A DNA stretch of 61,605 nt, filler included. It is 5 parts of 5 records of this genome, joined end to end, with 100 filler letters (N's around TTAATTAATTAA, not from the genome) between each part and the next. Parts side by side here need not be neighbours in the genome. Positions count along the whole stretch, not along the records: positions 43,918 to 61,605 come from DRR723986_19036; 4 more parts are not named here. One strand, 5' to 3'. Numbering within the stretch: the first letter of the stretch is position 1; each line of letters begins with the position of its first letter. Position numbers and translations under genes: made by a program. Under the pieces are notes generated by a model. The model did not search any database. It saw nothing but the letters and a program-made list of their open reading frames with translations, and was not told the origin of the DNA. Positions 3,884-55,143 of the stretch are shown here, one piece after another.

Positions 3884-5461
3884 ATGAAGCACTTTTTAAA
3901 GGGGCTGGTTGCCTCTGCTGCGCTGAGCGCAGTTGTAGTGGGAAGCCAGGCCGCGGCCGAAGAACCGGTACGGGGAGGCACCTTGGTAACGGTGATTGCG
4001 ACCAATGTTCGGAACTTGAACTCATCTGTTCAATCCGGAATCGCAACTGGGTACCCCGGCGCACAATTGTTCGCCTCGCCCCTGCGCTATGACGAAGATT
4101 GGAACCCTCAACCTTATTTGGCAGAAAGTTGGGAAGTCAGCGAAGACGGCCTGACAGTGACCTTGAATTTGGTGAAGAATGCCAAATTCCATGATGGTGT
4201 GCCGATCACGTCTAAAGACGTGGCATTTTCGGTTGATGTGATCAAAGAGAACCATCCGTTCAAGTCGATGTTTGCCCCGGTGTCTTCGGTTGATACACCA
4301 GATGATCACACAGCGATCCTGAATTTGTCGAAACCCCACCCGGGTCTGATGTTGGCGATGTCAGGTCAGCTGATGTCGATCATTCCACAGCACGTGTATG
4401 GGGATGTTCCTATAAAAGAGGTGAAAACTCACCCTCGAAACAATGAGAACCCAGTTGGTTCAGGGCCCTTCAAACTGGTCGAATACAAATCTGGTGAACA
4501 CATCATTTTGGAACGGTTCGACGACTTCTTTATTGAAGGACGTCCGTATCTGGACAAAGTGGTGATGCGGATTATCACCGATCCAGCCGCGCGTGCGATT
4601 GCTTATGAAAATGGCGAATTGCATATGGGTGCATTCGAGTCTCTGCCGCGTATCATCAATCGCTTGAAAAAAGTGGATGGATTGAATGTGACCCCAAAAG
4701 GGTACGGTGCGATTGGTCCACTTGATTGGCTGGCGATGAACACCCAATCGGGCCCGCTCAAGGATGTTCGTGTCCGCAAGGCAATTGCCTATGCGATTGA
4801 TAAGAATTTCATCCAGAAAGCCCTGATGCTTGGCACGTCAGAGGACAGCCGGACAGGTATCCACCCTGATAGCCCATTCTATAATGGGGATGTCGAAGGT
4901 TATGACGTTGATCTCGACAAGGCTAACGCCCTGTTGGACGAGGCCGGTTTCCCAATGGATGGGGACAAGCGGTTTTCGCTGACGATCGATTTTGGCTGGC
5001 CGGGCGTAAAACCGCAGGTCGAATATGTCAAAGCGGCGCTGAAAAAGGTTGGCATCGACGTGTCCGTCCGCGCGAGCGCCGATTTCCCGACTTGGGCCAA
5101 GCGTATGGGTCAAATGGACTTCGACATGAGCTGGGATACCGTCTTTAACTGGGGCGATCCTGTGATCGGTGTCCACCGGACATATGTGTCAGATAACATT
5201 GGCAAAGGTGTCTGGTCGAACACGCAGGGCTATTCCAACGCACGTGTAGATGAGCTGCTTGATATGGCCGCGCGCGAAAATGACCCGGAAAAGCGCAAAG
5301 CGATGTATGGTGAATTCCAACAGATCATCGCGGATGAACTGCCAGTCTATCACACCAACACACTCCCATATCACACGGTGTATTCCGACAAAGTCGGCAA
5401 CCCACCATTGGGCATTTGGGGTACGTCGACGCCAATCGACATGACCTACCTGAAAAAGTGA
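3884..5461 (+). CDS. ABC transporter substrate-binding protein, family 5 (peptide/nickel)
   Basis: Signal peptide; LAESWEVSEDG, KFHDG, GSGPF and VRKAIAYAID motifs; GGAGG RBS. Confidence 0.93.
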   Translation: MKHFLKGLVASAALSAVVVGSQAAAEEPVRGGTLVTVIATNVRNLNSSVQSGIATGYPGAQLFASPLRYDEDWNPQPYLAESWEVSEDGLTVTLNLVKNAKFHDGVPITSKDVAFSVDVIKENHPFKSMFAPVSSVDTPDDHTAILNLSKPHPGLMLAMSGQLMSIIPQHVYGDVPIKEVKTHPRNNENPVGSGPFKLVEYKSGEHIILERFDDFFIEGRPYLDKVVMRIITDPAARAIAYENGELHMGAFESLPRIINRLKKVDGLNVTPKGYGAIGPLDWLAMNTQSGPLKDVRVRKAIAYAIDKNFIQKALMLGTSEDSRTGIHPDSPFYNGDVEGYDVDLDKANALLDEAGFPMDGDKRFSLTIDFGWPGVKPQVEYVKAALKKVGIDVSVRASADFPTWAKRMGQMDFDMSWDTVFNWGDPVIGVHRTYVSDNIGKGVWSNTQGYSNARVDELLDMAARENDPEKRKAMYGEFQQIIADELPVYHTNTLPYHTVYSDKVGNPPLGIWGTSTPIDMTYLKK

Positions 5462-10017: not shown

Positions 10018-10117
10018 NNNNNNNNNNNNNNNNNNNNNNNNNNNNNNNNNNNNNNNNNNNNTTAATTAATTAANNNNNNNNNNNNNNNNNNNNNNNNNNN
10101 NNNNNNNNNNNNNNNNN
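10018..10117. other. Artificial contig linker
   Basis: 44 N + TTAATTAATTAA (stops in all six frames) + 44 N. Confidence 0.98.
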
Positions 10118-15311: not shown

Positions 15312-15411
15312 NNNNNNNNNNNNNNNNNNNNNNNNNNNNNNNNNNNNNNNNNNNNTTAATTAATTAANNNNNNNNNNNNNNNNNNNNNNNNNNNNNNNNN
15401 NNNNNNNNNNN
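15312..15411. other. Artificial contig linker
   Basis: 44 N + TTAATTAATTAA + 44 N. Confidence 0.98.
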
Positions 15412-33260: not shown

Positions 33261-33360
33261 NNNNNNNNNNNNNNNNNNNNNNNNNNNNNNNNNNNNNNNN
33301 NNNNTTAATTAATTAANNNNNNNNNNNNNNNNNNNNNNNNNNNNNNNNNNNNNNNNNNNN
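33261..33360. other. Artificial contig linker
   Basis: 44 N + TTAATTAATTAA + 44 N. Confidence 0.98.
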
Positions 33361-43817: not shown

Positions 43818-43917
43818 NNNNNNNNNNNNNNNNNNNNNNNNNNNNNNNNNNNNNNNNNNNNTTAATTAATTAANNNNNNNNNNNNNNNNNNNNNNNNNNN
43901 NNNNNNNNNNNNNNNNN
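43818..43917. other. Artificial contig linker
   Basis: 44 N + TTAATTAATTAA + 44 N. Confidence 0.98.
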
Positions 43918-44613
<696 letters not shown>

Positions 44614-52881: not shown

Positions 52882-52986
52882 AGTGGTTTTTGTTCTCTCA
52901 AGTATAAGACGAAGCCAATCAGGAATCAACCTTTTTTGATCAAAAAGGAATTCATTTTAGTAACTTAACGAGTGCATTTGAAGATT

Positions 52987-53226
52987 ATGAGTAAAGAAGA
53001 ATTCACCAACCTCCCTTTCCACAAAAAAATAAATACCCTCTACACCGAGGGTACATTTGTGGTCGGTATACGCTATTACAAGCACAAGGTGAATCTTTAT
53101 CTTCTCGAAAACGAATACATCGAAGTTTTCTATAATCACAAACAGGATAAAATTGATAAAATTGACTTTTTGCCACGAGATCATACTCGAATGAAGTTCT
53201 ATTTGGATCAGATAAAGTTAGCATGA
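52987..53226 (+). CDS. Small hypothetical protein
   Basis: Protein-like 79-aa ORF (EF..L....K...L...G...LY.L....IEVFY). Confidence 0.7.
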   Translation: MSKEEFTNLPFHKKINTLYTEGTFVVGIRYYKHKVNLYLLENEYIEVFYNHKQDKIDKIDFLPRDHTRMKFYLDQIKLA

Positions 53227-53263
53227 TATTTCCCGCAGATTAAAACCAATTTGCATAGAATAA

Positions 53264-53486
53264 TTTCCCGCAGATTGACGCAGAAAAAACACGCTGAGTT
53301 GCGCAAATTTTTGATGTTGTACTATAGATTATCTCGGATTGAATTTGAGGTTATTTTCGGGAAAACAAACTGCATCAAATAAGCCTCTCGATGATTTACA
53401 GAGCTTTTTTAGGAGCAGAGATTCCTTTGATAGTTCAAGATCCTCGACAATCTGCGTTAATTATCTGCGTAGATCTGCGGGAAATA
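53264..53486 (+). repeat. Bipartite inverted-repeat element, copy L (upstream of GxxExxY)
   Basis: 5' arm 53264-53315, 121-nt spacer, 3' arm 53437-53486; termini TTTCCCGCAGAT / ATCTGCGGGAAA. Confidence 0.9.
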
Positions 53487-53565
53487 TCAACAATCATCTC
53501 CGGGAAATATGAACTAAATTCGACTGATATTCAGTAAATTAGACACACTTTTTAAATCATACAAA

Positions 53566-53943
53566 ATGACTGAAAACGATATTTCTTATAGAATACGAGG
53601 ATGTATTTTTAAAGTATACAACCGCCTAGGGCCAGGATTATTGGAATCTGCTTATGAACTCGCTTTAACTCATGAATTAGAAAAAGACGGGCTAAATGTA
53701 AGACGTCAAGTAGGTCTTCCGTTAGTTTATGATACGATTAAGTTAGATGTTGGCTATAGGATTGACTTAATAGTTGAAAATAAGGTCATAGTCGAAATTA
53801 AATCAATTGAAAACCTTTTGGAGGTACACCATAAGCAAATCATTACTTATCTAAGACTATCAGGATTAAAACTCGGACTATTGGTTAATTTCAATGTGGA
53901 AGATATTACTGAAGGAATTATCAGGAAAGTCAATAACCTTTAG
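53566..53943 (+). CDS. GxxExxY protein (predicted PD-(D/E)XK nuclease fold)
   Basis: LGPGLLESAYE signature; RIDLIVENKVIVEIKS; Q..TYL...GLLVNF. Confidence 0.93.
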   Translation: MTENDISYRIRGCIFKVYNRLGPGLLESAYELALTHELEKDGLNVRRQVGLPLVYDTIKLDVGYRIDLIVENKVIVEIKSIENLLEVHHKQIITYLRLSGLKLGLLVNFNVEDITEGIIRKVNNL

Positions 53944-53944
53944 G

Positions 53945-54069
53945 TTTCCCGCAGATTTACGCAGAAAAAAAACGCTGAGTTGCGCAGATTTTTGATTGAC
54001 ATAATTGTTTTTTGTTTTAAAGATCCGCGACAATCTGCGTTAGTTATCTGCGAACATCTGCGGGAAATA
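53945..54069 (+). repeat. Bipartite inverted-repeat element, copy R (downstream of GxxExxY)
   Basis: 5' arm 53945-53996 (49/52 identical to copy L), 23-nt spacer, 3' arm 54020-54069 (46/50 identical to copy L). Confidence 0.9.
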
Positions 54070-54153
54070 GCCCCGAAAGTTAGTAGGATAGGAAGTAGCT
54101 TTGCGGGAAATTCCCAAAAATTCGAGTAATTCGTATCATTAATTTTTATACCC

Positions 54154-55143
54154 ATGAAGAGAAAAATTGCCCTGGTTACAGGTGGATATACCGGAGAATC
54201 TGTCATTTCTTTAAAAAGTGCTGCTGTGGTAGAAAAAACCATTGACCGCAATCTTTACGACGTTTACAAAATCCTGATTTATCCTGGAGATTGGCATTTT
54301 CTGTCTGCCTCAGGAGAAAAAATCCCAGTGGACTTAAACGACTTCAGTATAAGAATCGGTGATGACAAAATCACCTTTGACGGTATTTTCAATATCCTTC
54401 ATGGCTCTCCGGGAGAAGATGGAAAGCTTGCGGGCTATTTCGACATGATCGGTATTCCATACACTACTTGTGATCAGCTCAGCTCTGCCATTACCATGAA
54501 CAAGGGCTATACAAAAGCAATTGTAGACGACATCGAGGAGCTGCACATTGCTAAATCACTTCAGCTATTTGAAAACTCTGCTAAAAACCTAAAGCGGGTA
54601 CAAGATGAGCTGACTTTGCCTCTTTTTATCAAACCAAATAATGGAGGAAGCTCTATCGGTATGAGTAAAGTAAAAACCTGGGAAGAATTGCCTGAGGCTT
54701 TGGATAAGGCTTTTGCGGAAGATAAACAGGTGCTGGTAGAAGAGTTTGTCTCAGGGCGGGAGTTTTCAATTGGCTGCTATAAAGGTAAAGGAGAAATCAC
54801 CGTGCTTCCCGCCACGGAGATCGTGAGCAGCAAAGAATTCTTCGATTATGAAGCCAAATACGTGGCAGGAGTGACAGAAGAAATCACCCCAGGAAGAATG
54901 TCTGATGAAGAAGTTGCCCGTGTAAATCGGATTATTGCAAAGATCTATGAAAAGTTAAACTGCAAAGGCGCGATCCGCGTAGATTACTTCCTTCAACACG
55001 AAACAGGCAAATTTTACTTTATCGAAGTAAACACTGTTCCAGGCCAAACTGAAACCAGTTTGATTTCCCAGCAAGTGAAAGCCATCGGCATGGAGGTGAG
55101 GGATTTTTATACTGAGTTGATTGAGGAGATGTTTATTATTTAA
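54154..55143 (+). CDS. ddl: D-alanine--D-alanine ligase
   Basis: GGYTGE..ISL.S, LHGSPGEDG, KPNNGGSSIG, FDYEAKY and EVNTVPG motifs. Confidence 0.95.
   Translation: MKRKIALVTGGYTGESVISLKSAAVVEKTIDRNLYDVYKILIYPGDWHFLSASGEKIPVDLNDFSIRIGDDKITFDGIFNILHGSPGEDGKLAGYFDMIGIPYTTCDQLSSAITMNKGYTKAIVDDIEELHIAKSLQLFENSAKNLKRVQDELTLPLFIKPNNGGSSIGMSKVKTWEELPEALDKAFAEDKQVLVEEFVSGREFSIGCYKGKGEITVLPATEIVSSKEFFDYEAKYVAGVTEEITPGRMSDEEVARVNRIIAKIYEKLNCKGAIRVDYFLQHETGKFYFIEVNTVPGQTETSLISQQVKAIGMEVRDFYTELIEEMFII

Follow-up and report, generated by a model that had tools for sequence, protein, structure and literature searches.

A GxxExxY nuclease gene framed by inverted arrays of a seven-base unit upstream of ddl, and similar arrangements across Bacteroidota

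A nuclease gene between two palindromic elements

We analysed a 61,605-nucleotide (nt) stretch of DNA (hereafter the window) in which a gene of the GxxExxY family, encoding a protein of 125 amino acids (aa), lies between a hypothetical gene and ddl and is bracketed by two palindromic elements, A and B (Table 1). The arms of both elements are arrays of about four CGCAGAT units with TTTCCC/GGGAAA ends, and their termini read TTTCCCGCAGAT and ATCTGCGGGAAA. The initial annotation of this DNA had already noted these termini and had likened the arrangement to a REPIN/RAYT system, reportedly described by Bertels and Rainey and by Nunvar et al. as doublets of repetitive extragenic palindromic (REP) sequences with a REP-associated tyrosine transposase (RAYT).

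Table 1 Features of the module and its host genes (positions in the window)
Feature	Position	Strand	Evidence
Upstream host gene, hypothetical, 84 aa	52972..53226	+	no Pfam or NCBIfam match
F0, lone outer terminal unit TTTCCCGCAGAT, exact	53229..53240	+	repeat search, 12-mer count
F1, element A 5′ arm: TTTCCC terminus, then about four CGCAGA-like units	53264..53315	+	
Element A spacer (loop), 121 nt, unrelated to element B spacer	53316..53436	.	
R1, element A 3′ arm: ATCTGCG units, GGGAAA end	53437..53486	+	hairpin fold
Extra degenerate 3′ terminal unit ATCTCCGGGAAATA, 1 mismatch in 12-mer search	53496..53509	+	
GxxExxY gene, 125 aa, PD-(D/E)XK fold	53566..53943	+	profile matches, alignment, structure model
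F2, element B 5′ arm, beginning 1 nt past the GxxExxY stop codon	53945..53996	+	
Element B spacer (loop), 23 nt	53997..54019	.	
R2, element B 3′ arm	54020..54069	+	repeat search, hairpin fold
R0, degenerate outer 3′ terminal unit ending GCGGGAAAT, adjoins conserved ddl leader	54095..54111	+	
ddl (D-Ala-D-Ala ligase), downstream host gene	54154..55143	+	Pfam match

As first described, the two 5′ arms agree at 49 of 52 positions and the two 3′ arms at 46 of 50, the spacers are unrelated to each other, and each arm resembles its counterpart (92-94% identity) more than its own pairing partner, which it matches in only 36-39 of 55 aligned columns. The asymmetries are thus common to both elements, which are therefore copies of one already-asymmetric ancestor. 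Three further units had been missed, namely F0, R0 and the degenerate unit at 53496-53509. The first of these follows the stop codon of the upstream gene after 2 nt and forms, together with its flank, a perfect 17-nt complement to 53473-53489.

The repeats are concentrated at this locus. The terminal 12-mer (at most one mismatch) occurs six times in the window, all at 53229-54067, compared with 0.43 expected, a count equalled by none of 100 shuffles, and CGCAGAT occurs 24 times compared with 8.3 expected, with 10 of the 24 within 53234-54062. Each element folds as one long hairpin, of -71.9 kcal/mol (z -5.3) for element A (53264-53486) and -53.2 kcal/mol (z -8.1) for element B (53945-54069). 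A + strand terminator scan listed none at either element, no U-tract follows the hairpins, and an Rfam scan of 52900-54200 at E values up to 1 gave no match. The terminator scan, which also covered sigma-70 promoters, was judged uninformative, and sigma-70 is the wrong promoter type for Bacteroidota. The window consists of contigs chained by N linkers, the contig of the module beginning at 43918, and distances that span a linker are therefore meaningless. The four identical linkers (10018-10117, 15312-15411, 33261-33360 and 43818-43917), each made of 44 N, TTAATTAATTAA and 44 N, are the source of 'repeat' D1 in one repeat scan, which was discarded as not biological.

The identity proposed for the gene was confirmed. 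The open reading frame (ORF) matches PF13366 (PDDEXK_3; 2.2e-41, 141.3 bits, cut-off 22) and TIGR04256 (5.1e-42, 142.9 bits, cut-off 35), and these are the only Pfam and NCBIfam matches of the protein, with no HUH/Y1 transposase among them. An alignment of 37 of 42 proteins, including that of the window and omitting one fragment, two sequences with doubtful starts and two near-identical copies, has G22, G24, E27, Y30, D67, E77, K79, Q91, Y95, G104, N108 and F109 as invariant positions, so that both the GxxExxY motif (G24, E27, Y30) and the PD-(D/E)XK catalytic residues (D67, E77, K79) are intact. The AlphaFold model is confident (predicted local distance difference test, pLDDT, 94.8). The best solved structure found by Foldseek is Cas4 SSO0001 (TM-score 0.59 on the query, E 0.012), a match that is the best but weak, and other leading matches are Hjc resolvases, lambda exonuclease and AddAB (E 0.012 or weaker). 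Since the model is confident and its fold matches include Cas4, Hjc and lambda exonuclease, the protein is, on its predicted structure, a minimal RecB/Cas4-like nuclease core. In contrast to Cas4/RecB-type proteins it is half the size and lacks both the iron-sulfur cluster module and a CRISPR context. A phmmer search against PDB sequences and a tblastn search of phage records gave no match, and neither PADLOC nor PHROGs has a family for the protein; plasmid records gave eight tblastn matches, all predicted to be non-mobilizable. PDDEXK_3 is listed as 'Unknown' in an excerpt of a 2012 superfamily survey (PMC3424549), and a passage of the myRT paper (PMC8934634) reports a cas4 gene that had been taken for a GxxExxY domain.

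Allelic states of the junction in relatives

When metagenomes were scanned with the upstream hypothetical protein (79 aa) as query, 80 loci encoding relatives at 72-96% identity were obtained, and in 41 of them the start of ddl is visible downstream, after a spacer of 80 to 3783 nt (L and G numbers are our handles for loci and genomes). The junction is empty at L206 (80 nt) and holds one degraded palindrome at L197 (173 nt). At L189 it contains a palindrome, a GxxExxY gene whose protein is 91% identical, and two palindromes, and at L188 an array precedes the last ~30 codons of a GxxExxY gene, which a palindrome follows. The insertion upstream of ddl that had been proposed is therefore borne out by empty, part-filled, full and decayed alleles, and the gene is not syntenic in all relatives, being absent from L206 and L197 and reduced to a remnant at L188.

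On the right, the window, L188, L189 and L197 have the same boundary, GCGGGAAAT and then the ddl leader, and the outermost units consequently look like the oldest element, within which the gene and inner arms appear to be nested. Close relatives show the module in different conditions: a ~98.5% identical strain in run X1 has a 4-nt deletion in the GxxExxY gene at window position 53778, causing a frameshift, and in a ~90% identical relative the layout is complete. On contigs of runs X3 and X4 the 3′ arm recurs in different surroundings.

Other relatives have different cargo at the junction, including a GIY-YIG cassette, lipoprotein genes and a 728-aa gene. The small gene of this cassette (116-118 aa; L186 4980-5330, L191 1361-1717, L187 about 4330-4690), which we take from its motif to be of GIY-YIG type, is framed by an inverted ~24-nt repeat, GTCAGGCTGAGCGAAGTCGAAGCC and its complement, and L186 has several extra gene-less copies of this repeat. 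This gene is another case of a small nuclease that comes with a palindrome of its own, distinct from the CGCAGAT type.

Unit arrays, protein lineages and dispersed copies

In a tree of 62 proteins (63 minus one fragment), every frame with GAT-ending units belongs to one clade of 19 that includes the window's protein (SH-like approximate likelihood ratio test, SH-aLRT, 96). Its members come from 15 or more genomes, and among those with titles are Chitinophagaceae and Flavobacteriales. On the tree the unit labels require 21 changes, compared with 40.5 after shuffling, and none of 200 shuffles was as low. All proteins at least 63% identical to that of the window are accompanied by C(G/A)CAGAT units and a TCCC terminus. 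The palindrome-gene-palindrome layout is found in eight of the 19 clade members (the window, L189, L122 and L267-L271), while in five or six the gene sits inside one element and in three the palindromes are downstream only (L270 and L283 were read by eye). Downstream of the clade gene at L266, the 5′ arm occurs three times in exact 100-nt steps (G183:C7 206901, 207001 and 207101), a tandem amplification of half elements.

This recurrence bears on the possibility that an ordinary intergenic palindrome was duplicated locally, in tandem, around an unrelated gene with which it has no functional link. The two copies are adjacent and 92-94% identical, and local tandem copies are common at other loci (L082, L266), but the same bracket surrounds clade members in other genomes and the unit is specific to the clade. 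We consider a mere duplication most improbable and already largely refuted.

Differences in the unit follow the protein at several levels. Genome G003 encodes four GxxExxY lineages, each with its own unit. In one sub-clade all units have switched from CGCAGAT to CACAGAT, and the same change is found in the dispersed termini of its genomes: the gene arms of G179 are CACAGAT and 18 of its 20 dispersed termini read TCCCACAGAT (A-type), whereas G183 has CGCAGAT gene arms and TCCCGCAGAT (G-type) at 21 of 25 dispersed termini. Residues 14, 18 and 19 of the first helix track unit position 7, with H accompanying G in 38 of 38 cases and Y/F accompanying T in 17 of 17, a switch that falls on one branch of the tree.

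Framing by repeats extends to the GxxExxY family at large, which has members in 163 of 301 evenly sampled Bacteroidota genomes (1-13 matches each). We scored the flanks of 41 genes, comprising 11 genes of carrier genomes, the 30 top-scoring genes of the sample, the window, L189, L017 and L070, after exclusion of one fragment and three broken genes. The inverted-repeat score exceeded all 30 of the gene's own shuffles in 32 of the 41, and the median was 17 compared with 8 for 58 control ORFs of the same loci, in agreement with the repeat enrichment that the initial annotation had suggested looking for in GxxExxY flanks. The commonest frame consists of AACC-CACAGAG units, the gene and the mirror image. 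In a literature search, supplements not covered, we came across no account of repeat arrays that frame GxxExxY genes; one candidate for a prior description, PMC4679880, was dropped since the part of it concerned deals with TAACTGA direct repeats, a different thing. Outside Bacteroidota, two other arrangements were seen: on the Fusobacteria plasmid L265 the GxxExxY gene is flanked by ~46-nt repeats that are direct rather than inverted, and in Sphingomonas (L263) it lies inside the fabD-fabG operon with CGCGAAG-like units upstream.

Comparable frames surround genes that do not encode nucleases. Among 19 loci of PF05635, a four-helix-bundle family, 15 have inverted arrays of other short units when read by eye, two have arrays in direct orientation and one has no arrays; a twentieth locus was mis-called and is outside the 19 read.

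Beyond this locus, the pattern common to the four arms (TTTCCCGCAGAT, three free bases, CGCAGA) matches at least 121 places in species-representative genomes, and 66 of 80 titled loci bear Bacteroidota names. By our arithmetic ~17 matches are expected by chance in the collection, so that lone matches in other phyla mean little. A GxxExxY gene was detected by tblastn at three of the array loci listed and adjoins the array in all three; the flanks searched were 2.5 kb for 80 loci and only 0.3 kb for 41. The terminal 12-mer occurs 244, 151, 131, 14 and 3 times in five carrier genomes (reversed control 0-1 per strand) and is present in 136 of the 301 sampled genomes, mostly in 1-3 copies with a few high counts (131, 28, 11). 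Proteins at least 62% identical to that of the window are encoded in 3 of 10 genomes with at least five terminal 12-mers compared with 8 of 290 others (Fisher p 0.004, centre genome left out).

The arrays themselves appear to be under constraint. Further CGCWGA units lie beyond the searched part in 105 of 146 arms compared with 11 of 146 control stretches, with spacings of 10, 12 or 13 nt between units and a T after the unit in 141 of 179 cases. In one metagenome-assembled genome (MAG) the units are constant and the bases between them vary from copy to copy, which points to constraint on the units rather than to rapid copying in the recent past. Only 35-49 of the 146 arms have an inverted partner no more than 200 nt away.

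In the abundant copies of G004 and G005 the arms stand back to back on either side of a conserved 38-39-nt core, in the order units-GGGAAA, core, TTTCCC-units (for example L016 2501-2581), a polarity opposite to that of the ordinary palindrome, and 58 of 100 terminal 12-mers of G004 among the matches listed pair in this way, 50-51 nt apart. The core was considered as an internally deleted gene, a possibility that was dropped because it has no similarity to the gene-proximal DNA of its own genome (local scores 4-10). At L016, L004, L025 and L037 the CGCAGAT arrays often run directly into other tandem heptamers (ACTCACT and CCTAAAC types) resembling the PF05635 frames, as if different kinds of frame were nested.

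These features of the arrays have to be weighed against an origin at the RNA level, in which the arms would act after transcription, in read-through from the host operon, as stems that are cut by host RNase III or that stabilise or terminate the mRNA, the gene being a passenger and its protein unrelated to the repeats. Consistent with this, both hairpins are strong, the module lies between co-directional genes and starts 2 nt past a stop codon, and the neighbours of the 41 family genes are mostly co-oriented (31 of 39 upstream, 34 of 41 downstream), though co-orientation is common in bacteria anyway and, being little above the general level in bacterial genomes, was not used as support. The frame is moreover shared with PF05635, the family of the 23S rRNA intervening-sequence ORF, whose terminal repeats are cut by RNase III according to passages of PMC4990558. 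No RNA run was listed among those that contain the stretch. A stem, however, requires complementarity and not a fixed heptamer, whereas here the units are kept while the inter-unit bases vary and are often unpaired. The small proportion of arms with a nearby inverted partner, the reversed polarity of the abundant G004/G005 copies and the lack of a U-tract on the + strand also argue against an RNA-level role, and we consider it rather unlikely.

Alternatively, the arrays could be binding sites or REP-like structural elements that a chromosomal protein of Bacteroidota maintains, and small selfish genes would only land or survive preferentially in these intergenic palindromes. The low-copy presence of the terminal 12-mer in 136 of 301 genomes, with far fewer matches for the reversed control, would fit such sites, as would the many arrays without a gene, the use of the same hypervariable junction by other cargo (the GIY-YIG gene with its different palindrome, lipoprotein genes) and the helical-turn spacing, which suits any DNA-binding protein. 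Against a host factor, the unit follows the protein clade and not the host taxon, one genome combining four lineages with four unit types; GAT-type arrays flank the proteins of a single clade across different families of the phylum; and GxxExxY, PF05635 and GIY-YIG genes each have their own kind of repeat. On balance this alternative seems unlikely.

Interpretation and comparison with known systems

Gene and arrays have been kept together while the proteins of the clade diverged to about 56-69% identity, and within the clade the unit is C(G/A)CAGAT, the ends are TTTCCC/GGGAAA and the arrays are mostly complete palindromes on either side of the gene. Since the arrays are kept with the gene and the units stay fixed while their neighbours drift, we take protein clade and unit to be functionally linked, and in the simplest form of such a link the nuclease would recognise its own arrays. 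Our preferred reading, which we hold tentatively, is that the region is a selfish nuclease with cognate repeats and one of a widespread class of cassettes, in which a minimal PD-(D/E)XK gene quite possibly travels and persists with inverted arrays of a lineage-specific 7-base unit.

For such a system we infer binding, cleavage, mobility and a route of spread as follows. The protein would recognise its own units, which follow one another at intervals of about one helical turn (10-13 nt), in duplex DNA or in an extruded hairpin, and would cut in the array or close to it. The gene and the arms could then be copied or shuffled by recombinational repair from arm to arm, and the gene-less palindromes would be non-autonomous satellites, as REPINs are to a RAYT.

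Several observations weigh against a selfish nuclease with cognate repeats. As many as 118 of the 121 array loci listed have no GxxExxY gene in their flanks by tblastn. Terminal 12-mers number 14 in the complete genome G001, which has no clade gene (its best protein is 52% identical), and 151 in G005, a possibly incomplete MAG with gene fragments only. No target-site duplication was seen at the window's elements or in the flanks of the complete palindromes read, and no near-identical dispersed copies were seen within one genome (the arms of one MAG differ between units), so that recent transposition is not apparent. The gene may fall into decay where the arms are retained, as in the L188 remnant, the X1 frameshift and a stop codon at L123. 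The T/G switch at unit position 7 coincides with residues 14/18/19 on one branch, giving one independent pair, and the best columns for unit position 2 give two supported pairs; neither carries statistical weight, and co-descent explains the tracking as well as recognition does. The CACAGAG arrays are of low copy (0-6 per genome), and REPIN-like expansion is thus not general. Lastly, the PF05635 loci indicate that such a frame does not require an encoded nuclease.

What was originally proposed as a nuclease with its cognate repeat module consequently stands in part. The arrangement recurs in other genomes with a clade-specific unit, which supports the view that gene and repeats are a recurrent module and not a coincidence, whereas a strict cognate dependence is weakened by the gene-less arrays, by G001 and G005 and by the PF05635 frames. 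Similarly, the expected co-variation of protein and repeat is present as a clade-specific unit type, but the residue/base switch lacks independent replication. We regard as doubtful the more far-reaching proposal that a novel type of mobile or self-propagating DNA has GxxExxY proteins as its only enzymes. In this scheme a 125-aa nuclease would read a helically spaced 'heptamer code' in its own flanks with residues 14/18/19 setting its specificity, would spread itself and gene-less satellites and would explain ORF-bearing rRNA intervening sequences.

PF13366/TIGR04256 is a large orphan family, for which a fixed partnership with unit arrays would provide a concrete and testable substrate. If true, this partnership would explain a frequent type of intergenic repeat in Bacteroidota, connect it with the ORF-bearing rRNA intervening sequences, themselves unexplained, and add, beside RAYT/REPIN, a second and mechanistically different lifestyle of a nuclease with satellite repeats. 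The present locus contributes a separate clade whose high-copy satellite resembles REPINs, an agreement, genome by genome, between the gene-flank and the dispersed variant, and a natural allelic series at the hypothetical gene-ddl junction (empty, palindrome only, full module, remnant, frameshift) that offers a ready comparative system.

The closest parallel is with REPIN-RAYT, where a small nuclease-type gene also lies between inverted hairpin-forming repeats and gene-less doublets, sometimes hundreds, are dispersed through the genome with no target duplication seen. The likeness drawn in the initial annotation is upheld by the flanking inverted hairpins and by the dispersed gene-less copies of other carrier genomes (up to 244 12-mers in one) but not by the enzyme, a PD-(D/E)XK nuclease here and an HUH/Y1 (IS200-like) transposase in RAYT, and the relation is therefore one of analogy and not of membership. 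The arms differ as well, consisting of 3-4 helically phased heptamers where a REP is a single sequence of 20-40 nt with a GTAG or CGTC tag; GxxExxY genes are multi-copy, one genome having several lineages, and high-copy dispersal is seen in some genomes only.

Integron attC cassettes resemble the module in having an imperfect palindrome directly 3′ of an ORF, with asymmetries kept between copies. In the CGCAGAT elements, however, sequence and not structure alone is conserved, and single elements are scattered over genomes. The attC R-box has the consensus GTTRRRY and its complement; such termini are not found in the window's elements, which end TTTCCC/GGGAAA, no integrase search having been made. 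As for miniature inverted-repeat transposable elements or DDE-type transposons, inverted termini are present, but target-site duplications are absent from the flanks read, which sometimes extend the palindrome. Free-standing homing endonuclease genes share with the present module a small nuclease gene wedged between conserved host genes, filled and unfilled alleles at one site and a decay cycle with frameshift and remnant, but they are not known to have inverted repeat arrays as a frame or dispersed gene-less satellites.

A further parallel is provided by the ORF-bearing intervening sequences of 23S rRNA in Coxiella and Leptospira, which, according to the passages of PMC4990558 that concern them, have stem-forming terminal inverted repeats cut by RNase III. 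Common to both are a small ORF of unexplained role enclosed by stem-forming inverted repeats, a sporadic distribution and an unexplained origin; the ORF family of these sequences, PF05635, also has unit-array frames in the Bacteroidota genomes studied here. The module differs in lying between a hypothetical gene and ddl instead of in rRNA, in having its gene between two complete hairpins and not inside one, and in having arms built of repeated units. The PF05635 genes of G003, G004, G005, G065 and G149 (L164-L182) have short tandem frame units that differ from copy to copy, and their frame arrays exceed 100 nt at L170, L175 and L178.

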